From: a virus
Direction: 5' to 3' (one strand)
DNA: 38,673 nt
Virus genome (UHGV): UHGV-0106931
Part shown: in pieces, positions 1,065 through 13,649 of the stretch
How positions within the stretch are numbered: position 1 is the first letter of the stretch
Layout of the letters: each line of letters begins with the position of its first letter
Position numbers and translations under genes: made by a program
The notes under the pieces: model-generated
The model's database searches: none
What the model saw: only the letters and a program-made list of their open reading frames with translations
What the model was told of the DNA's origin: nothing

Positions 1065-2096
1065 TCAAAAACTTGCTATTGATGTTGGTAGTGTTGCCAG
1101 CGGATTAAACCGTAATGCAGTTTCCAGGTGATCCGGTGCCAGATGTGCGTAACGCATAGTCATTTTTATGTCGTGATGTCCGAGGATTTTTTGCAAAGCA
1201 AGGATATTTCCACCCGACATCATAAAATGCGCCGCAAACGTATGGCGCAGAACGTGTGTCAGTTGACCGCGAGGGAGCACGATAGACGTTTTTTCCATCA
1301 CAGATAAAAATTGAAAATAGCAGTCTGTGAAGAAATTGAACCCATCAAGCGCCACGATCTCTTCGTAAAGTTCTTTACTGATAGGGATGCTTCTGTTTTT
1401 CTTCCCCTTCGTTCTTACAAAGGTAATTCGGTATTTGGTCACCTGTGAGCGGGTAATATTTACAGCTTCACGCCAGCGTGCGCCTGTGCTTAAGCATATC
1501 TTAACTACCAGTGCCAGAATTGGGTCCTGACGTTTGCAATCAGCCAGCAATTCAACAATCTGCTCATGGGTAAGCCATGCCATCTCTTTTTCTGCGATGG
1601 TGAATTTTCGCATGTTCTCCAGTGGGTTCGGATACGACCATTCGCCCAGGCGGGATAGTTCGCTAAAAACACTACTTAGATAGCTTTGCTCCAGATTAAT
1701 GGTGATCGGGCTTGCTCCTTTCTTCCATTTCTCGCTGAAGTAGATCTCTCCTGTCAGGCGTTTATCTCGATAGTGGGCAAACATTTTAGAGGTGAGATCT
1801 GTTGCAAGGGGATTGCCCAGAGCGTCAACCATCAACAGCAATTTGTCATAGACATGCTGTCCAGCGGTTAGAGATTTACCATGTAGTTTGAACCATAGCT
1901 CAACCACGTCTTTCAGTGTTCGACGATCCACTGATTCACCAAGCCAGGGCTTTGCTTCGGTTTCTTCCATCGTGTGGCGCTCAAAAGCCAGAGCTTCGCC
2001 TTTGGTGGCGAATTGTTTACGCACACGACGCCCACTTCGGCCGGCGGGGTAACATTCGCAAAGCCATTTCCCTGTGGTGAGTTTTCGTACTGTCAT
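1065..2096 (-). CDS. int: Tyrosine site-specific integrase (P2/186 Int family)
   Basis: C-terminal catalytic signature (ARWREA, HVLRHTFA, MTMRYAHL); start placed at MTVRKL (2096) by analogy with 186 Int, alternative ATG at 2111. Confidence 0.9.
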   Translation of the reverse strand: MTVRKLTTGKWLCECYPAGRSGRRVRKQFATKGEALAFERHTMEETEAKPWLGESVDRRTLKDVVELWFKLHGKSLTAGQHVYDKLLLMVDALGNPLATDLTSKMFAHYRDKRLTGEIYFSEKWKKGASPITINLEQSYLSSVFSELSRLGEWSYPNPLENMRKFTIAEKEMAWLTHEQIVELLADCKRQDPILALVVKICLSTGARWREAVNITRSQVTKYRITFVRTKGKKNRSIPISKELYEEIVALDGFNFFTDCYFQFLSVMEKTSIVLPRGQLTHVLRHTFAAHFMMSGGNILALQKILGHHDIKMTMRYAHLAPDHLETALRFNPLATLPTSIASF

Positions 2097-2177
2097 AAAA
2101 AATGCCCTCATATCAGAGGGCTAAATTTAACTGTATGTTTGACCAGTGGTCAATGTAGGATTTGGACTTACCATACA

Positions 2178-3629
2178 TCAATCAAACGTTGTGCTAAGTT
2201 CAATTAAATCGAAATATTGATGAATTTTTAGTTCATTATTTTCAAGTCTGCGTAATGCATATCCCATCTTTAGAAAATTAACTAACGTTTCATCAGCAGT
2301 TAAATATCCCTCTAACCATTGCTCTGGTGTGTCTAAGTGGTGTGAACCAGGAGGAGCCACTTTTATCATAGTTAAAATATTCCATGCTGTTTCTATATAA
2401 TTAATAATTCCTGTGGAAATTTCTTTTTTATTATATGAATTATTATGATAGTTACCTTTATGTTGTAAATATTTTACTTGTGTAGCGGCATAGGATAAGT
2501 CAAACGATAGTTTTATCGAGGCATTGGAGACGGCAGTTGTAATTTTTTCTTTTGATTTTATCCTTGAATAAAGGTCATAATCTTTGAAGTTTAATGTAGA
2601 TAGCATTAACATTAAGTTAGGGTCAAAACTCTTCTCCGTTGTAATTAATATATCGATTAATCTTTCGTATATTTTTATAGCATCTCTCAGGCTCATACTC
2701 ATCGATTGCAAGATCGATGAGCAGTTACTTATAAATGAATTTATATCTGGAGACATTGGCATGAGTTTTTTTCTTAAACTATCAAAATCAGAAATAATAT
2801 TTTCACCAGTTTTTGTTAACAATAAATCTTGAAATTGTGGAGATGGTAACAGAAAACGACGGTCGAAAAATCTACTCAAATAATGGCTGGCGGAAAAGTC
2901 TCGGCCATATAGGACCTTTATCGAGTGCTGCAGTTGTTGCGTATCAGTAGATATTATAAATACAACACCAGGAATATTGAATATGTGTTTTGTGATTTCC
3001 AGAAGGCTGATTGAAAAATCAGGTCTGCACCTGTCAAGCTCATCAATTATTATAAATAATGGTAATTTTTTATTTATACCATCCTTTTGTTTTATATGTT
3101 TAATCCATTCGCCAATTCCGAGTTTAATTGTTTGCACTTTTTTATTTTTTTCCGCATGTATATCTAAAAGTTTTTCAGAAAGACTTTTTGATAAATTAGA
3201 AATGGAGTCTATACCTAAATGTGTCTTAACTAAGCTTTCAATTATAATTGGTGTTGCTGTTTTTAAAAGAGGGCCTATATTTTCGATGGTTTTATTAATT
3301 ACTTTTGTGAATTTATCTGATTGCTCTGTTAATTGTTCTTTAATTGAACTAAATACTGTTAATAATGGATCGTCTGAGAAATCATCTTTCCATGCGTCTA
3401 TATAAACTGTAGGGTGACTGTTTGATATAGTTTTAGCAAATCGCTTTGTAAAGTAAGTTTTACCAGCACCCCATTGTGCATTAATATTTATGACTAGGTT
3501 TGAATTTTCACCTCTGGAAGAACAAACCTCATAAAGATATTTAGCATATTTACCCCTATCTAAGGTATCTGAAGGTAAGTACTCTCCCAAATACTCATCT
3601 TCGTTATTCCATTGCCATTCAATACTCAT
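2178..3629 (-). CDS. KAP-family P-loop NTPase (483 aa), moron between cI and int
   Basis: Walker A NAQWGAGKT and Walker B-like IIIDELDRCRPDF, characteristic of KAP NTPases; markedly AT-rich versus flanking phage genes; start ATG abuts the cI stop (TAAATG). Confidence 0.72.
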   Translation of the reverse strand: MSIEWQWNNEDEYLGEYLPSDTLDRGKYAKYLYEVCSSRGENSNLVININAQWGAGKTYFTKRFAKTISNSHPTVYIDAWKDDFSDDPLLTVFSSIKEQLTEQSDKFTKVINKTIENIGPLLKTATPIIIESLVKTHLGIDSISNLSKSLSEKLLDIHAEKNKKVQTIKLGIGEWIKHIKQKDGINKKLPLFIIIDELDRCRPDFSISLLEITKHIFNIPGVVFIISTDTQQLQHSIKVLYGRDFSASHYLSRFFDRRFLLPSPQFQDLLLTKTGENIISDFDSLRKKLMPMSPDINSFISNCSSILQSMSMSLRDAIKIYERLIDILITTEKSFDPNLMLMLSTLNFKDYDLYSRIKSKEKITTAVSNASIKLSFDLSYAATQVKYLQHKGNYHNNSYNKKEISTGIINYIETAWNILTMIKVAPPGSHHLDTPEQWLEGYLTADETLVNFLKMGYALRRLENNELKIHQYFDLIELSTTFD

Positions 3630-4193
3630 TTATACCTCACTTATAACGCAATGTACTTTTGCAACAGGTTTTATATCATTAATGCCGCATTTAAATGAAA
3701 ATCCCTCTCCAGTAACCATGACTTTTTTAACTGGAATTAGATTGATTTTTTTTATGCTTAATTTTCCTTCTATTTCCACAAGCCACTGACCGTCAGAAAT
3801 AATGACATCTTCTCGATCACAAATATAAATCTGTTGATTAGCTAGTATAGCTAATGGAGATTTTGTTTTTCTCGGTAGTAAGATGGGATCAATCTTGTGT
3901 GTTCCAAGTTCGACGCTGTCTCCATTCTTTAATTCGTGCGTTTCAACATCAATTAACGTTGTTTCAGTATTCTTAATTAACTCACCTTTACCCGAGACGA
4001 GCCAATCAATTGAAATGCCGGTTTCCATCGCACATTGAAGAACCCAATCTGCGGGAAAAATATCACGCATGTAACGTGTCGCCATAGTGCTCTTTGATAC
4101 ACCTAAGTGGTCGCAGAGGGCCTGCCGGGTTGTGAACCCATATGCCTCTACCAAACGTTCAATTACTTTCTTACCACCGCTACTGAAATCCAT
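3630..4193 (-). CDS. cI: CI-type immunity repressor (186 CI-like, 187 aa)
   Basis: N-terminal HTH (TTRQALCDHLGVSKSTMATRYMRD); transcribed divergently from the apl/cII operon; GGAGG RBS. Confidence 0.75.
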   Translation of the reverse strand: MDFSSGGKKVIERLVEAYGFTTRQALCDHLGVSKSTMATRYMRDIFPADWVLQCAMETGISIDWLVSGKGELIKNTETTLIDVETHELKNGDSVELGTHKIDPILLPRKTKSPLAILANQQIYICDREDVIISDGQWLVEIEGKLSIKKINLIPVKKVMVTGEGFSFKCGINDIKPVAKVHCVISEV

Positions 4194-4338
4194 AAGTCCT
4201 CCAAAGAAATCTAAAGTTTGTTGACAGATTCCAAAAGCGATCTTAAAGTTGAGCTAGAAGAGTTCTTTTGGAGCCTTCACTACTAATCACGACAAACAAC
4301 GGCTCGCCACAAGCCATACTGATAAGGAATGTTGCCTT

Positions 4339-5695: not shown

Positions 5696-5929
5696 ATGCG
5701 TAATATTGAAACCCTCACGACTAAAACCGGACCGGATGACGCAGGGCTTAATATTTTACTGACAGAGGCTCGTCTGGAAGAACGCCGGGCAAGGGCTGAA
5801 GCAATGGCAGCTCGCCTTGATAGCCTGGCGTGCCATATCACATCCCGCCAGCTAAACCACGTCGAAGCGGCAGAACTGCTGCGTGTAACTGCTGAAGCAA
5901 TCCAGAACGAAGCGCAGGAGATCCACTAA
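5696..5929 (+). CDS. Hypothetical early protein (77 aa)
   Basis: AGGAGA RBS 7 nt upstream of ATG 5696; stop overlaps next start (TAATG). Confidence 0.5.
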   Translation: MRNIETLTTKTGPDDAGLNILLTEARLEERRARAEAMAARLDSLACHITSRQLNHVEAAELLRVTAEAIQNEAQEIH

Positions 5930-6156
5930 TGGCTGATGCAATGGATCTCGTACAGCAGCGCGTTGAAGAAGAACGCCAGCGCCATATTCGTGCTGCCCGT
6001 GCCAAAACACCGGGCGTGTCTCGCGTGCTTTGTATTGAATGTGAAGCGCCAATTCCGCCAGCACGACGCCGCGCCATTCCGGGAGTGCAGCTTTGCATTA
6101 CCTGCCAGGAAATCGCAGAGCTGAAGGGCAAACATTACAACGGAGGTGCTGTATGA
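5929..6156 (+). CDS. TraR/DksA-family C4 zinc-finger protein
   Basis: [25 protein letters not shown] is a Cys-x2-Cys...Cys-x2-Cys zinc ribbon typical of phage TraR-like proteins. Confidence 0.6.
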
Positions 6157-6455
6157 CAAGGGCAGTGCGTATCCATCAATTAAAAATTGCACCTAAGTAT
6201 TTCAACGCTGTGGTTGCAGGTCAAAAGACGGCTGAACTTCGTAAAGACGATCGTGGCTATAAAGTTGGTGATGTTCTTTCTCTTTGCGAATGGAAGCATG
6301 GCGTATTTACGGGTAGGGAATGGGCCGCTGTTATCTCTCATGTGCTTCCGGTTAATGACGTCATGGCAGTTTCAGAACAATGGGTGATGCTATCAATTCG
6401 TCCATTAACCCCATTAGAAGCTTTAGGATATGTTATTGCAGGAGGTGCTGTATGA
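6153..6455 (+). CDS. Small PUA/ASCH-like (DUF3850-type) protein
   Basis: [42 protein letters not shown] resembles ASCH/DUF3850 phage proteins (from memory); ATGA-coupled to neighbours. Confidence 0.5.
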
Positions 6456-7309
6456 GCACCATCCTGAAATGGGCGGGAAATAAAACCGCCATTATGTCCG
6501 AACTGAAAAAACATCTTCCTGCTGGCCCGCGACTGGTTGAACCTTTCGCGGGTTCCTGTGCTGTGATGATGGAAACGGATTATCCCAGCTATCTGGTTGC
6601 GGATATTAATCCTGATTTAATCAACCTCTATAAAAAGGTTGCCGCTGATTGTGAATCGTTTATATCTCGCGCCAGAGTTTTATTTGAGATCGCAAACAGG
6701 GAGGTGGCTTATTACAACATAAGGCAGGAGTTTAATTACTCAACTGAAATTACTGATTTCATGAAAGCGGTATATTTCCTGTATCTCAATCGTCACGGTT
6801 ACCGTGGTTTATGTCGCTATAACAAGAGCGGGCATTTCAACATTCCCTACGGTAATTATAAAAATCCGTATTTCCCTGAAAAAGAAATTCGCGCTTTTGC
6901 AGAAAAAGCCCAGCGAGCAACGTTTATCTGCGCCAGCTTTGATGAAACGCTGGCGATGTTGAAGGCGGGGGATGTGGTGTATTGCGATCCGCCTTATGAC
7001 GGTACGTTTTCCGGCTATCACACTGATGGTTTCACTGAAGATGACCAGTATCACCTGGCATCTGTTCTTGAACATCGATCATCAGAAGGACATCCGGTCA
7101 TTGTTTCTAACAGTGACACATCCCTGATCCGTTCGCTGTATCGCAATTTTACTCACCACTACATCAAGGCAAAACGCAGCATCGGCGTAGCAGCTGGTGA
7201 GAGTAAATCTGCAACAGAAATCATCGCTGTTTCCGGGCCACGCTGCTGGGTGGAATTTGATCCTTCGCGTGGCGTGGATAGTTCTGCTGTATACGAGGTG
7301 CGTGTATGA
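6452..7309 (+). CDS. dam: DNA adenine methyltransferase (Dam family)
   Basis: N-terminal KWAGNK and catalytic DPPY motifs; ATGA overlap with upstream gene. Confidence 0.85.
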
Positions 7310-9720
7310 GTCATGACGATATGAGCAACTCTAGCGGCTTTAACGAGGCCGCTACAGCATTTTCATGGAACGGCCCGAAAAAGGCCATTAACCCTTATCT
7401 GGACCCGGCGGAAGTTGCGCCGGAGTCTGCACTTTTAAACCTGATCACTCTGTACGCTGCCGATAATGAGCAGGAACAGCTGCGCCGCGATGCACTGAGT
7501 GAGCAGGTCTGGGAGCGTTATTTCTTTAATGAATCTCGTGATCCTGTCCAGCGCGAAATGGAGCAGGATAAGCTCATTAGCCGGGCAAAGCTGGCGCATG
7601 AACAGCAGCGTTTTAACCCGGACATGGTCATTCTGGCGGACGTCAGCGCCCAGCCCACCCATATTAGCAAGCCGCTGATGCAACGTATCGAATACTTCAG
7701 CAGCCTGGGCAGGCCAAAGGCTTATTCCCGCTATTTGCGTGAGACGATTAAGCCATGTCTGGAGCGACTGGATTGTGTACGTGACAGTCAGCTGTCTGCT
7801 TCTTTCCGTTTTATGGCAAGCCATCAAGGGCTGGAGGGCCTGCTGATCCTGCCTGAAATGAGTCAGGACCAGGTGAAACGCCTGTCCACCCTGGTAGCTG
7901 CGCATATGAGCATGTGCCTTGATGCAGCTTGTGGCGATTTGTATGCCACCGATGACGTTAAGCCAGAAGAAATCCGCAAGACATGGGAAAAGGTGGCGGC
8001 GGAAACCCTGCGTCTGGATGTCATCCCACCTGCGTTTGAGCAACTCCGTCGGAAAAGAAACCGCCGTAAACCCGTACCCTATGAACTCATTCCGGGTTCG
8101 CTGGCGCGTATGTTGTGCGCCGACTGGTGGTATCGGAAATTATGGAAGATGCGTTGCGAATGGCGGGAAGAGCAGTTGCGTGCTGTCTGCCTGGTCAGCA
8201 AAAAAGCATCTCCCTATGTCAGCTATGAAGCCGTGATGCATAAACGTGAGCAGCGCCGTAAGTCGCTGGAGTTTTTCCGTTCTCATGAACTGGTGAACGA
8301 AGACGGCGACACGCTGGACATGGAGGATGTGGTAAACGCCAGCAGCAGCAACCCTGCGCATCGCCGCAATGAGATGATGGCCTGTGTTAAAGGTCTGGAG
8401 CTTATCGCGGAAATGCGCGGTGACTGCGCCGTTTTCTACACTATCACCTGTCCGTCACGTTTCCATTCCACGCTCAACAACGGCAGACCCAACCCGACCT
8501 GGACAAATGCGACGGTAAGACAAAGCAGCGATTATCTGGTCGGCATGTTTGCTGCATTTCGTAAGGCAATGCACAAAACCGGGTTGCGCTGGTATGGCGT
8601 GCGGGTGGCTGAGCCGCACCATGACGGTACTGTGCACTGGCATCTCATGTGCTTCATGCGTAAAAAAGACCGCCGCGCCATCACTGCATTACTGCGTAAG
8701 TTTGCCATCCGTGTAGACCGCGAGGAGCTGGGCAACAACACGGGGCCACGCTTTAAGTCTGAGCTGATTAACCCGCGCAAAGGAACACCGACAAGCTACA
8801 TCGCGAAATACATCAGTAAGAACATTGACGGGCGTGGTCTGGCCGGCGAGATCAGCAAGGAAACGGGTAAATCCCTGCGTGATAACGCCGAATACGTTAA
8901 TGCCTGGGCGTCTCTGCATCGTGTTCAGCAGTTCCGCTTCTTTGGTATTCCGGGACGTCAGGCTTACCGTGAACTTCGCTTGCTGGCTGGTCAGGCGGCA
9001 AGGCAACAGGGTGACAAAAAAGCAGGTGCGCCGATACTGGATGACCCGCGCCTTGATGCCATCCTGGCTGCTGCTGATGCTGGTTGTTTTGCCACCTACA
9101 TCATGAAGCAGGGCGGCGTACTGGTTCCCCGTAAATATCACCTTATCAGAACCGCTTATGAAATCAACGAAGAGCCGACCGCCTATGGCGATCACGGCAT
9201 TCGTATTTATGGCATCTGGTCACCCATTGCAGAGGGCAAGATCTGCACTCATGCAGTGAAGTGGAAAATGGTTCGTAAGGCCGTTGACGTTCAGGAGGCG
9301 GAAGCCGACCAGGGCGCTTGCGCCCCTTGGACTCGTGGCAATAACTGTCCCCTTGCTGAAAATTTGAACCAACATGAGAAAGATGAATCAGCAGATGGGG
9401 ATACCAGAACGGACATTACCTGCATGGATGACAAGGAATTGCACGATTACCTGCACAGTATGAGCAAAAAAGAGCGCCGGGAACTGGCAGCAAGATTGCG
9501 CCTGGTTAAACCGAAACGGCGTAAAGACTACAAACAGCGAATTACAGAGTATCAGCGTCAGCAGCTCGTCTATGAACTGAAGTCCAGAGGATTTGATGGC
9601 AGCGAGAAAGAGGTCGATTTGCTCCTTTGCGGTGGCAGTATTCCGTCAGGAGCAGGCCTGCGTATCTTCTATCGGAACCAGCGTTTGCAGGAAGATGATA
9701 AGTGGCGGAACCTGTATTAA
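7306..9720 (+). CDS. A: Replication initiation endonuclease gpA (rolling-circle, P2/186 A family)
   Basis: 804 aa protein following the early operon in the P2 gene A position; HxH-containing region (TVHWHLMCF) consistent with a HUH-type nickase. Confidence 0.82.
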
Positions 9721-11980: not shown

Positions 11981-12676
11981 ATGGCTTGCAGTAGGGGAAA
12001 AGCTTCTCCAAACGCTAATACAGTTAGACGGCTTTTTGCCAGCTCAGGTGGCTTTTGCCAAAATCCACAATGCTTGCAACCTTTGTTTGTTGATGCTGGC
12101 GACAAAAATATAACAATTGGAGAACTTGCTCACATTTTTAGTGCCATTGATAATGGACCTAGAACCAATGCTGATCTAACTGATGAGCAGAGAGGTCATT
12201 TTGACAACATTATTCTTCTATGTGCTAATTGCCATACGACAATTGATAAGGCAGAGGAACATTTTACTGATGAAATTATCCGTTCTTGGAAAAACGGCCA
12301 TATTGATAAAATAAATGCAACCTTTGGTGTTAAAACATATGACAATCGAGAATCTGTTAGACAGGAGTTAGAAAAATACTTCAGAGAAAACAATACCATT
12401 TTTGTAACATATGGACCAACCCAAGAGAACAGCGTTGACCCTGAAAATCCAAATGCAGAAGTATGGTTAAGAAAAGTACAATCTCATATCTTACCCAACA
12501 ATAGAAAAGTACAGCGACTGGTTGAACAAAACTATCACCTCATGAGTGAAGATGAGAAGAATGTTTTTTCAAAGCTTTGTGTTCATATAGATGACTTTGA
12601 ATCAAAACATTTGGGCTTAACCGATGCTAATGGTAGTAGGTTTCCAGAAGCTGCATCTGAACTATTTATAGGATGA
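11981..12676 (+). CDS. HNH-motif nuclease-like protein (231 aa), cassette gene 1
   Basis: C-x2-C (CQNPQC), conserved His (ELAHIF), Asn, and CANCH arranged as in HNH endonucleases; AT-rich; stop overlaps next start. Confidence 0.65.
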   Translation: MACSRGKASPNANTVRRLFASSGGFCQNPQCLQPLFVDAGDKNITIGELAHIFSAIDNGPRTNADLTDEQRGHFDNIILLCANCHTTIDKAEEHFTDEIIRSWKNGHIDKINATFGVKTYDNRESVRQELEKYFRENNTIFVTYGPTQENSVDPENPNAEVWLRKVQSHILPNNRKVQRLVEQNYHLMSEDEKNVFSKLCVHIDDFESKHLGLTDANGSRFPEAASELFIG

Positions 12677-13332
12677 ATCCAATGAGCATAAATGCGAGTG
12701 AAGGCTATATTTCATGGATGGCAGGAAAATTACAAGAAAATAAATGTGTCGAAAATATAGAGGTGATAGGTGATGGTACTTTAGTGATTAATACTACACA
12801 GGGTGACACCTATTTGATCGGGGCAATCAATACTGGCCGGATAACATGTCCTGAGATAAATGAATACCTAGACAATAAAAAAATTGATTTTCTATCAGTC
12901 AAGGGAGGTGTTGAATTTATCTCTGGTGATGCAATGAGATTACTAGAACAAAAGAAAATAGGAGTGGGTTCATTTGGGCATATTGCATCTTCTTTAAGAG
13001 CTAATAATCCGCTTGAGCATCTTGATAAAGAGCATTTGTTTATAAATAGAGTGTTCAATCAACATTCACATGTAAGCTCTGTAGAGCGAGAAACCAACAA
13101 AAAATATAGACTTAAAAGACGTGGCTTGGCGGACTTAGTTATTATCGCTGCGAATGATTATGATATGACAGCGGGTTCTGTAAGAGATGCGATAGGGTTG
13201 CATGGCAATTGTGATGTTGTTTTTTCCTCCAATCCTAATGGACGATTGACGACTCAGGCAAAAGAGGCTGCTCAAAGTATCGGGGTGGAGCTTTACAAGT
13301 TGGGTGATTTATTACGAAGAATTTCACGGTAG
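12673..13332 (+). CDS. Hypothetical protein (219 aa), cassette gene 2
   Basis: ATGA-coupled to gene 1; no domain confidently recognised; a weak Rx6H (RANNPLEH) is noted only as a possibility. Confidence 0.6.
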   Translation: MNPMSINASEGYISWMAGKLQENKCVENIEVIGDGTLVINTTQGDTYLIGAINTGRITCPEINEYLDNKKIDFLSVKGGVEFISGDAMRLLEQKKIGVGSFGHIASSLRANNPLEHLDKEHLFINRVFNQHSHVSSVERETNKKYRLKRRGLADLVIIAANDYDMTAGSVRDAIGLHGNCDVVFSSNPNGRLTTQAKEAAQSIGVELYKLGDLLRRISR

Positions 13333-13649
13333 TGAATTTTAAACATACGATTGAATCGATCTGTGATGTTATTATCCATCATAGTTTATATATGGTGGAT
13401 GTATATGTATTTGGGTCAGCATTAAAGAGTTTTTGCGATGCAAATGATATTGATATGCTTGTGATAGGTGATTGTGTCGATGGTTTATTATTGAAGCGAA
13501 AGCTGCGGGAGCTTGATTTATTTGTTCCTGTTCATATTATTACAATGACGCATTCAGAAGAGTATGAACTGGGATTTATTAAGTCTGTTGGCACTTCTCT
13601 GCTTGTTGTTGATAAAAGCGTTAAGATCAATTTTGTATGTGGTATATAA
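13332..13649 (+). CDS. Minimal nucleotidyltransferase-like protein (about 105 aa), cassette gene 3
   Basis: FGS-x9-DID (YVFGSALKSFCDANDIDMLV) fits the Pol-beta-type NTase motif; GTG start overlapping the upstream stop (TAGTG), alternative ATG at 13392. Confidence 0.5.
   Translation: MNFKHTIESICDVIIHHSLYMVDVYVFGSALKSFCDANDIDMLVIGDCVDGLLLKRKLRELDLFVPVHIITMTHSEEYELGFIKSVGTSLLVVDKSVKINFVCGI

Follow-up and report, generated by a model that had tools for sequence, protein, structure and literature searches.

The question raised by this locus is why a phage of enteric bacteria carries a DNA adenine methyltransferase gene of its own, when E. coli, Salmonella and Klebsiella are Dam+ and Enterobacterales hosts have both Dam and MutH. 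The stretch of DNA analysed (hereafter the window; 38,673 nucleotides, virus genome UHGV-0106931) is a complete P2/186-like prophage, and the gene, here called dam, is located in its early lytic operon region. A sequence-only reading made earlier had described a Dam-type methyltransferase with a DPPY motif at positions 6452-7309, and had offered self-methylation against restriction, control of replication or packaging, and altered methylation of the lysogenic host as possible roles.

The dam ORF coincides exactly with those positions, is intact and encodes a protein of 285 aa (858-bp CDS), with the ATG at 6452-6454 and the TGA stop codon at 7307-7309. A longer reading of 309 aa, starting at 6380, was ruled out, since the 858-bp CDS is the one called by PGAP in an E. 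coli chromosome with 99.9% identity. The deduced protein matched Pfam PF02086 (MethyltransfD12) with E=1e-76 (258.5 bits, cutoff 22), its residues 7-244 aligning with profile positions 1-253 of 253, and it passed the NCBIfam model TIGR00571 'dam' with 323.3 bits (cutoff 114.85). Crystal structures of the E. coli Dam protein (EcoDam) were matched with E=1.5e-73, the identity with PDB 2G1P being 46% over 269 aligned residues. Judged by these comparisons, membership in the D12/Dam family is far beyond chance, and the earlier identification of the gene is confirmed. The host-Dam equivalog NF008152, in contrast, was not reached (288.5 bits versus a cutoff of 441), which indicates that the protein belongs to a paralogous phage clade and is not the orthologue of the chromosomal dam. 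The top PADLOC match was 'orphan methyltransferase' (1.2e-111), and type II methyltransferase models were matched as well. Structure prediction from an alignment of 22 sequences yielded an unusable model (mean pLDDT 48.6), because the homologues in the alignment were all at least 71% identical.

The motifs of the family are intact in the phage protein. The AdoMet motif I (FxGxG) was found as F32-A-G34-S-C36, which aligns with F35/G37/G39 of EcoDam, and the acidic residue that ends strand 2 (D51) corresponds to EcoDam D54. Residues K9, W10, F35, G37, D54, R95, R116, Y119, L122, R124, N126, N132, P134, Y138 and D181-P-P-Y184 of EcoDam are all kept. This includes the residues for GATC recognition (K6, Y117, L120, R122, P132 and Y136 in the phage numbering), the roles of R124, L122/P134, Y119, K9/Y138 and N120 of EcoDam having been described previously, with N120 making base contacts (PMC4417163). 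Three positions are changed with regard to EcoDam, N120 to R118, R137 to N135 and G39 to C36, and the new residues are invariant or nearly so across the phage clade (C36 is invariant). R118 and N135 sit at DNA-facing positions, whereas C36 is part of the AdoMet-binding motif I, the last Gly of which is likewise missing from T4 Dam. In addition, a C-terminal extension of ~20 residues, missing from EcoDam, is conserved in the phage clade, and five residues are deleted after DPPY as compared with EcoDam. From residue conservation, GATC composition (see below) and the title of a 1990 report on a close relative, we infer that the enzyme is GATC-specific; N6-methylation of the adenine in GATC is its predicted activity. 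As a side observation, the GAT-CCG codons inside the stretch coding for DPPY themselves make a GATC site.

Table 1. Features of the dam region of the window.
Feature	Position	Strand	Evidence or description
Early lytic promoter candidate TTGACA-17-TAAAGT	4221..4249	+	Consensus scan, 10/12 matches
TraR/DksA-type C4 zinc-finger gene	5929..6156	+	PF01258 3.1e-11; TIGR02419 above cutoff
DUF3850/ASCH-domain gene	6153..6455	+	PF12961 1.1e-23
dam Shine-Dalgarno GGAGG	6441..6445	+	Sequence; within 15-nt junction GGAGGTGCTGTATGA
dam	6452..7309	+	Orphan D12-class (alpha-group) N6-adenine DNA methyltransferase, predicted GATC-specific
DPPY catalytic motif IV codons (residues 179-182)	6986..6997	+	Sequence; aligns with EcoDam D181-Y184
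Replication gene A (rolling-circle initiator endonuclease)	7306..9720	+	Phage_GPA PF05840 4.8e-127
Ori-like sequence GGCGCTTGCGCCCCTTGGACTCGTGGCAATAACTGT inside gene A	9313..9348	+	Matches P2 and 186 nick-site region

As shown in Table 1, dam belongs to a row of genes on the plus strand linked by ATGA overlaps, in the order TraR-like zinc finger, DUF3850/ASCH, dam and gene A. The zinc-finger gene, a homologue of P2 orf82 and of the zinc-finger gene of phage 186, marks the left edge of the variable slot occupied by dam. The DUF3850/ASCH gene overlaps the start of dam (ATGA at 6452-6455), to which it is translationally coupled, and the 15-nt junction that contains the dam Shine-Dalgarno sequence occurs again at 6142-6156. 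This gene is an optional cassette; it is missing in RE-2010, Fels-2 and 813R9 and present in P2 and Wphi, both of which lack dam. A reader-writer pair formed by the ASCH/DUF3850 protein and Dam was rejected, the former being found at 4 of 32 dam+ and 5 of 48 dam- loci (Fisher p=1.0; n=80). At the other end, the ATG of gene A (7306-7308) overlaps the dam stop codon. According to the record of phage 186, the ORF before A apparently has to be translated to its end for A to be translated, and CI represses pR. The syntenic order repressor, cox/apl, cII, fil, further genes, zinc finger, slot and A was found in the window, and its early operon is arranged as in RE-2010, 813R9, Fels-2, 186 and P2. The position in the early operon just before gene A, as given in the sequence-only reading, was thus corroborated.

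The promoter candidate is flanked by the CI repressor gene, with repressor domains encoded at 3630-4193, and by the cox/apl-like gene. By analogy with phage 186 it was assigned the role of pR, and transcription of the dam operon is presumably driven from it. A GATC site (4239-4242) lies one base 5' of its -10 hexamer. Terminator-like matches in the operon were not in excess (8 versus 7.1 expected from shuffled sequence). The ori-like site was mapped via the gpA alignment from the P2 nick site (29892) and the 186 ori (28576). It contains neither a GATC nor a GATC cluster, the closest sites being those at 9190 and 9240, and a control of replication or packaging by methylation is therefore not supported. 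No restriction endonuclease gene is adjacent to dam, its neighbours being the TraR-like, DUF3850 and gpA genes, in agreement with the earlier description. The only nearby nuclease-like gene encodes an HNH protein (11981-12676) and is found 4.7 kb downstream, in the A-Q cargo hotspot. It was rejected as the cognate nuclease on account of this distance and of its matches to CBASS/PDC-M68A effector models and not to type II ones.

Genes of this kind are already known and very common, and there is nothing new in the gene itself. Among 5,426 complete genomes of E. coli, ~1,244 contained DNA of the dam module, the known hosts of the clade are E. coli, Salmonella and Klebsiella, and Dam-family genes are widespread among phages, with 473 phage records. 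A protein listed at NCBI as 'retron EC67 DNA adenine methylase', after that of Retron-Ec67 (phiR67), has 285 aa and is 97% identical to the window protein. A later paper places retron Ec67 in a 34-kb element with a Dam methylase ORF. In contrast to that element, the window prophage lacks a retron, and its A-Q cargo is the HNH-effector cassette. To go by the titles of two older reports, the retron element is said to encode 'Dam methylase functions' (that of Hsu, Inouye and Inouye from 1990), and retrons Ec67 and Ec86 reportedly reside in a 186-related prophage (that of Dodd and Egan from 1996). Nucleotide identity to the window dam was 97.4% for gp10 of RE-2010 and 96.5% for gp07 of Klebsiella phage 4LV2017, and the product of Fels-2 STM2730 showed 73% protein identity. 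In these Felsduovirus-type phages (Fels-2, Salmonella RE-2010, 4LV2017 and Escherichia vB_EcoM-813R9) dam is likewise directly upstream of gene A and overlaps it. There the TraR-like gene is followed by dam, whereas the window adds the DUF3850/ASCH gene flanked by the repeated 15-nt junction.

More distant enzymes were also compared. EcoDam (PDB 2G1P/4GOL/4RTJ) has the fold family, motif order, contact residues and catalytic residues in common with the window protein, but it is chromosomal, whereas the window dam is phage-borne and belongs to a paralogous clade. T4 Dam (PDB 1YFJ; E=4e-18) and DpnM, the methylase of DpnII (2DPM; E=1.3e-33), belong to the same D12 family and are much more distant in sequence. 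T4 Dam is, like the window enzyme, an orphan Dam encoded by a phage. DpnM is part of a restriction-modification system, whereas the window enzyme has no partner nuclease. The small Dam (PF05869) of the P2-like Haemophilus phage HP1 is, like that of the window, a phage Dam encoded near the replication gene. However, it belongs to an unrelated family (173 aa), is an analogue and not a homologue, and is encoded downstream of rep in HP1. M.EcoMIV of E. coli ST131 EC958, reported as 'prophage Dam homolog, not transcribed' (PMC4659465), is a different protein of 254 aa from a Mu-like prophage, and that report was accordingly not counted as evidence for silencing of the window dam.

The result added here is the link between dam carriage and GATC content. 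The GATC O/E was 0.73-0.79 in five P2-like phages carrying Dam and 0.13-0.23 in P2, 186, PSP3 and Wphi, all of them without dam. GATC content differs four- to six-fold between classical P2-like genomes with and without their own Dam, and the genome-wide shift is of ~90 GATC sites per genome. In a set of 58 prophages, taken from different species of Enterobacterales, the median GATC O/E was 0.85 with dam and 0.49 without it (Mann-Whitney p=1.3e-6), and after grouping into 80%-identity clusters the medians were 0.83 and 0.50 (p=1.4e-4). On the terminase tree, six independent contrasts all pointed in the same direction, with higher GATC O/E in the dam+ lineage. One Dam+ locus (L086, O/E 0.81) branches within the GATC-depleted P2/186 clade, beside a locus with an O/E of 0.20 (L068). 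When the 136 tetramer classes were ranked by their difference with dam carriage, GATC came first. Four of the classes in ranks 2-6 (GATA, GACC, CATC and AATC) are one-base neighbours of GATC that shift the opposite way, as expected from GATC avoidance alone. Dam+ lineages still remain somewhat below 1 (median 0.85). Pseudomonas phage phiCTX, the host of which is not known to have Dam or MutH, showed no depletion (GATC O/E 1.06).

Several dam-less loci of the Enterobacterales were not depleted. One of them (L075, O/E 0.92) lacks this dam but carries a Dam of the HP1 type, and HP1 itself has a GATC O/E of 0.63, so that carriers of this other Dam (HP1 and L075) are without strong depletion. No other Dam family was found within 10 kb on each side of the remaining non-depleted dam-less loci. 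These loci are close kin of Dam+ phages, and recent loss of dam is their likeliest history. In two clusters of close prophages the dam- members share the GATC O/E of the dam+ members (0.74-0.95), which indicates that the link is visible only over longer evolutionary time and could derive in part from shared ancestry or recent gene loss. An explicit statement of this link for P2-like phages was not found in the literature searched, although novelty is not thereby proven. It has been described that GATC is counter-selected in enterobacteriophages, that phage DNA is under-methylated and that MutH cuts unmethylated sites (PMC5014478), and the paper in question cites McClelland 1984 and Deschavanne & Radman 1991 for the idea of counter-selection by MutH.

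On the whole, we consider it probable that dam encodes an active, GATC-specific orphan Dam that is made together with gpA in lytic growth and shields the GATC sites of replicating phage DNA. Its place in the early lytic operon and its translational coupling to gene A would cause the methylase to appear as rolling-circle replication starts, and in the CI-repressed lysogen the gene would be silent; this timing is suggested by the 186 annotation and by the promoter-like site at 4221-4249. The phage Dam would outpace the host Dam, which is limited, in methylating the GATC sites of new phage DNA, and phage genomes would thereby be kept from staying un- or hemi-methylated. The protection would be directed mainly against the MutH endonuclease of mismatch repair, and SeqA or GATC-cutting restriction enzymes of the next host would possibly be countered too. 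MutH is named here as the proposed selective agent, while composition by its nature cannot separate it from other GATC-reading agents. Dam+ lineages would then tolerate a near-normal GATC density, whereas dam-less P2-like lineages would have purged their GATC sites instead. The specificity probably coincides with that of the host Dam; the compositional signature nevertheless speaks against functional redundancy of the two enzymes for the phage.

The same mechanism of self-methylation would operate in classical anti-restriction, in which progeny are pre-methylated against DpnII/MboI/Sau3AI-type enzymes or other methylation-reading defences of the next host. The enzyme is a phage orphan methyltransferase whose best PADLOC matches are orphan and type II methyltransferase models, and a loss of GATC avoidance with dam is also expected on escape from a GATC-cutting enzyme. 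Nevertheless, the hosts of the clade are themselves Dam+, so that GATC-cutters blocked by Dam should be rare among them and host methylation already protects in part. Moreover, no GATC-cutting restriction enzyme is encoded in the window, and in our sample strong depletion was seen only in Dam-less Enterobacterales phages and not in phiCTX. Of the proposal of anti-restriction by self-methylation, the second half is the best supported of all, given the loss of GATC avoidance with dam and the first rank of GATC among tetramers. Foreign restriction-modification, on the other hand, is an unlikely target, since in hosts that methylate GATC, nucleases or binders of un- or hemi-methylated GATC are more natural ones. 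A broader protection through methylation beyond GATC seems very improbable. R118, N135 and C36, fixed or nearly so in the clade and two of them DNA-facing, would be compatible with a relaxed or different specificity, as would the conserved C-terminal tail of ~20 residues without a counterpart in EcoDam, and N120 of EcoDam does contact bases. However, the tetramer scan singled out GATC, the next classes being its mutational neighbours with the opposite direction, and the phage protein retains counterparts of all six residues R124, L122, P134, Y119, K9 and Y138.

Methylation of particular GATC sites, such as the one beside the early -10 hexamer, might instead tune the lysis-lysogeny decision, initiation of replication or late transcription, for which P1, Mu mom and IS10 provide precedents. 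A GATC is found 0-1 nt 5' of the predicted early -10 in the window, Fels-2, RE-2010, 813R9 and PSP3, and in P2 a GATC overlaps operator O1, while the immunity regions of these phages differ. Since the promoter GATC is also present in the dam-less P2 and PSP3, it would, if functional, be served by the host Dam, and carriage of dam would be left unexplained. Together with the GATC-free ori-like site and a genome-wide shift of ~90 sites that is unlike the effect of a few regulatory ones, this makes such self-regulation improbable as the reason for the gene. Least probable of all is lysogenic conversion, by which dam expressed from the prophage would change the methylation and gene expression of the host in a way that favours the lysogen. 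The wide spread of the module in E. coli (1,244 of the 5,426 complete genomes) would be in keeping with it, and deletion of a prophage dam, possibly a different one, in Salmonella Derby was reported to lower epithelial adhesion (PMC9453062), but the effect was modest and was read out as adhesion, not as methylation. The predicted target is, besides, that of the host Dam, which already methylates >98% of GATC in the related bacterium Serratia, and the place of dam, behind a promoter under CI control within the early lytic operon, is not one of the moron hotspots in which genes for lysogenic conversion are found. The altered methylation of a lysogenic host that had been envisaged is thus not supported, this operon being CI-repressed in the 186 model.

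Returning to the shielding of replicating phage DNA, a wider proposition can be made, to which we give somewhat less than even credence. Enterobacterales P2-like phages may have two alternative answers to GATC pressure, either purging the sites, as in P2, 186, PSP3 and Wphi, or carrying Dam in the slot before gene A; gain of dam may suffice for recovery of GATC, as L086 suggests, and the C-terminal tail and the coupling to gpA might bring the methylase to the rolling-circle replisome. No description of such a split within the family was found in the searchable literature.

The gene is an ordinary one, and the value of the locus lies in the comparison of close P2-like relatives with and without their own Dam. 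The old hypothesis that Dam and MutH select against GATC in enterobacteriophages is turned by the P2-like family into a direct test. The locus also calls for caution when prophage methylases are read as factors of 'epigenetic conversion', since position and target argue here for a self-directed role in the lytic cycle.

The sequence-only reading had described a Dam-like methyltransferase with a DPPY motif at 6452-7309, and this description was confirmed, as were all its other checkable points. A GGAGG sequence was read six bases upstream of the ATG, and an 858-bp dam CDS is called by PGAP in NZ_AP027258, a 99.9% identical E. coli chromosome; a 309-aa reading from position 6380, taken from a mechanical ORF list, was rejected against this call. 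The product covered the whole Pfam MethyltransfD12 profile (E=1e-76), scored 323 bits with the NCBIfam Dam subfamily model TIGR00571 (cutoff 115) and matched the crystal structures of the E. coli chromosomal Dam (EcoDam; 2G1P, 4GOL and 4RTJ) with E about 1.5e-73, DPPY occupying residues 179-182. The host-Dam equivalog model NF008152 was not reached (288 bits vs 441), which indicates that the gene is a phage paralogue of dam.

Global alignment with EcoDam gave 46% identity. Residues K9, W10, D54, R95, R116, N126, N132, Y138 and D181-P-P-Y184 (EcoDam numbering) were conserved, together with F35 and G37 of motif I and with Y119, L122, P134 and R124. In EcoDam, Y119 is the intercalating residue, L122 and P134 act at the third base pair and R124 makes the guanine contact that is established first; the roles of N120, K9 and Y138 are described in the same work (PMC4417163). 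The phage protein differs from EcoDam in three substitutions (N120 to R118, R137 to N135 and G39 to C36) and in a five-residue deletion after DPPY. Since R118 and C36 were invariant, and N135 nearly so, in an alignment of 22 relatives from many Enterobacterales genera, these substitutions are characters of the clade and not damage. These relatives also have in common some 20 additional C-terminal residues (W266, G268, D270, G274, D276, V283) that EcoDam lacks; in more distant prophage Dams the extension is missing, their alignments stopping near residue 260.

The gene was already known and is an ordinary representative of the phage Dam family, as its near-identical named relatives show. Annotated DNA adenine methylase genes of Salmonella phage RE-2010, Klebsiella phage 4LV2017 and many Klebsiella prophages share 96-97% DNA identity with it, the surrounding 2.1 kb is present in 1,244 of 5,426 complete E. 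coli genomes, and the identical protein occurs on 60 NCBI contigs. Identity was 97% with the protein called "retron EC67 DNA adenine methylase" in NCBI and 73% with Fels-2 STM2730, in whose record the retron similarity is cited as well. According to a later paper citing the original work, retron Ec67 sits in a 34-kb element with a Dam methylase ORF, and Dodd & Egan 1996, by its title, assigns retrons Ec67 and Ec86 to a prophage related to 186. M.EcoMIV, the prophage Dam of ST131, was discarded as a candidate for the same gene; it is a different one, in a Mu-like prophage. The exact protein is filed in a 90%-identity cluster whose representative is an 804-aa replication endonuclease. This database artefact, which calls for caution in reading cluster names, probably arises from fused or read-through Dam-A gene calls (e.g. 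proteins P0053 and P0057). In three E. coli proteins of 456-496 aa (P0008, P0009 and P0074) this type of Dam is fused with a Phage_GPD (late control D) domain; they appear to be relics of prophages whose dam and gene D were brought together by a large internal deletion.

The window is E. coli chromosome with a complete P2/186-like prophage adjoining rcdA. A P2-like prophage with a Dam methylase, phi-b0847, has been named in CFT073 (PMC3573123), and its name suggests that it occupies the same site. Gene order, together with ATGA overlaps at the DUF3850 stop/dam start and the dam stop/A start, bore out the early-operon place just before A (see table).

Features of the dam region (window coordinates unless a locus is named)
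Feature	Position	Strand	Remarks
Integrase	1065-2111	-	
KAP-NTPase defence-type gene	2178-3629	-	between integrase and CI genes
CI repressor, 186 type	3630-4193	-	
Promoter-like site TTGACA-17-TAAAGT	4221-4249		strong; between CI and first rightward gene
Promoter GATC	4239-4242		5' of predicted -10 of early lytic promoter
cox/apl-like, cII, fil, DUF5347, DUF2732 (orf80 type) genes		+	in this order
TraR/DksA zinc-finger gene	5929-6156	+	after DUF2732 gene
DUF3850/ASCH gene	6153-6455	+	directly before dam
dam	6452-7309	+	285 codons; ATG at 6452, TGA 7307-7309
C-terminal extension of Dam	7235-7306	+	residues 262-285; conserved in phage clade at at least 62% identity
Replication gene A	7306-9720	+	directly after dam
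Cargo genes, then portal and terminase genes			beyond A
HNH protein, CBASS/PDC-M68A effector-like	11981-12676	+	A-Q cargo hotspot, 4.7 kb downstream of dam
219-aa protein	12673-13332	+	middle gene of A-Q cargo cassette
105-aa protein	13332-13649	+	weak nucleotidyltransferase matches, below Pfam cutoffs
PAPS-reductase-domain protein (186 orf84)	L005 (phage 186) 25743-26747		directly before A in place of dam

The 186 genome annotation has CI repressing the corresponding promoter, pR, and notes that translation of A appears to need translation to the end of the preceding ORF. If the window prophage follows this pattern, dam is expected to be expressed early in the lytic cycle and translated jointly with gpA, with no expression in the lysogen. 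No restriction enzyme gene adjoins dam, as had been read from the sequence, its neighbours being the DUF3850 gene and A, and the best PADLOC match of its product was the "orphan methyltransferase" model. The HNH gene was considered as a type II endonuclease and rejected, its matches being to CBASS-type and PDC-M68A HNH effector models. With the two overlapping ORFs that follow, it forms a three-gene cassette that, judged from these matches, is probably an anti-phage system. For the KAP-family P-loop NTPase, PADLOC gave a match to PDC-S20, a candidate defence system (E=5e-84), and weaker ones to PifA and QatA; its gene marks a second place in the prophage where defence-type cargo is carried.

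P2-like phages differ in what they carry from the zinc-finger gene to A. P2 and Wphi have DUF5405 there, and 186 has DUF5405 together with an RNase T-like exonuclease and a PAPS-reductase-like protein. In Fels-2, RE-2010 and 813R9, which lack the DUF3850 cassette, dam is the only gene at this place; the window has both DUF3850 and dam, and some prophages have no gene here. An identical 15-nt junction, GGAGGTGCTGTATGA, which comprises a Shine-Dalgarno sequence and the ATGA overlap, flanks the DUF3850 cassette on both sides (6142-6156 and 6441-6455), and the dam/A junction (7295-7309), GAGGTGCGTGTATGA, is a near-copy of it. Such coupling junctions may be where early-operon cassettes are swapped. 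Carriage of dam and of DUF3850 showed no association in 80 loci. A PAPS-reductase protein also precedes A in three further loci (L025, L073 and L079), and its carriage had no consistent relation to GATC content, the observed/expected ratio (O/E) running from 0.13 (186) to 0.84 (L025).

GATC content was expressed as O/E against a maximal-order Markov expectation, over whole genomes for the classical phages. The dam carriers (window prophage, 813R9, Fels-2, 4LV2017 and RE-2010) had O/E 0.73-0.79 and 86-117 GATC sites, or 110-117 if only the four complete genomes are counted (813R9 was represented by a 25-kb region), whereas P2, 186, PSP3 and Wphi, without dam, had 14-30 sites and O/E 0.13-0.23. 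The wider sample comprised 80 gpA-encoding loci from 80 genome records, mostly of different Enterobacterales species, in which D12 dam was scored by tblastn and GATC measured over the conserved genes A, Q, P, O, N and M. D12 dam was found in 32 loci, always 0-1.7 kb upstream of A. Among loci with at least 4 kb of core, median O/E was 0.85 with dam (n=27, range 0.56-1.28) and 0.49 without (n=31, range 0.08-0.95; Mann-Whitney p=1.3e-6); no Dam+ locus fell below 0.56, and 13 Dam- loci fell below 0.45. The gap was seen in gene A and in late genes alike. GATC ranked first of 136 reverse-complement tetramer classes for this difference, and four of the next five (GATA, GACC, CATC and AATC) are one mutation away from it and more frequent in sequences poor in GATC. 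For the classical genomes the difference was 1.97 log2 units in GATC and 0.71 in the class ranked second.

Relatedness was taken into account by clustering at 80% nucleotide identity (30 clusters): median O/E was 0.83 for the 18 purely Dam+ clusters and 0.50 for the 10 purely Dam- ones (p=1.4e-4). A neighbour-joining tree of the large terminase gave six separate Dam+/Dam- contrasts, all in the same direction. The clearest was a Dam+ locus (L086, 0.81) nested in the GATC-poor P2/186 clade, where its neighbours are L068 (0.20) and L064 (0.50); A and late genes were both affected. Two mixed-state clusters of very close relatives showed no difference (0.71-1.06 vs 0.74-0.95), which indicates that the relation is not immediate and fits recent loss with compositional lag. 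The outgroup phiCTX, whose Pseudomonas host we take to lack Dam and MutH, had O/E 1.06. HP1, which carries a small Dam (PF05869) unrelated to that of the window, had 0.63 and K139 0.58; one locus without window-type dam (L075, 0.92) has an HP1-type Dam.

P2-like phages replicate by gpA-initiated rolling circle. GATC counter-selection in enterobacteriophages is an old observation (McClelland 1984), attributed by Deschavanne & Radman (1991) to methyl-directed mismatch repair, MutH being held to cleave under-methylated phage DNA at its unmethylated GATC sites (both as cited in PMC5014478, which gives experimental evidence for poor methylation of phiX174 DNA). Made together with gpA, the phage Dam would keep replicating phage DNA methylated and would so remove the pressure against GATC. 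We hold this explanation to be reasonably probable, as gene position, coupling to A, predicted specificity and the compositional split all fit it. The selective agent could be MutH, SeqA or GATC-cutting restriction enzymes of the next host. Classical anti-restriction would be the same mechanism with a different enemy, and is less natural because the hosts are Dam+ themselves; of the anti-restriction by self-methylation first proposed, the self-methylation is the better supported part. Relaxed specificity of the phage Dam, conceivable from the sequence, found no support in the tetramer scan.

In the window, Fels-2 (L006), RE-2010 (L010), 813R9 (L002) and PSP3 (L007), a GATC stands 0-1 nt before the -10 predicted for the early promoter, a hint that dam may regulate the phage's own programme. 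These phages differ in their immunity regions, and the site is kept even where a whole genome has only about 25 GATC sites. In P2 (L004) the switch-region GATC overlaps the repressor operator O1; the 186 switch region has no such promoter GATC. Dam-sensitive control of the phage switch is possible on sequence grounds, but the promoter GATC is also found in phages without dam, so that carriage of dam is not explained, and the ori-like site holds no GATC, which speaks against the control of replication that the sequence-only reading had offered. Its suggestion of altered host methylation in a lysogen fared no better: one paper describes a modest adhesion phenotype in Salmonella Derby (PMC9453062), but lysogenic conversion is unlikely given the early lytic position of the gene and a predicted target redundant with that of host Dam. 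The observation was thus confirmed and its interpretation partly supported. No statement that P2-like phages avoid GATC according to whether they carry dam was found in the searchable literature. This relation between dam and GATC follows an established idea and is a tidy, testable by-product of the analysis.
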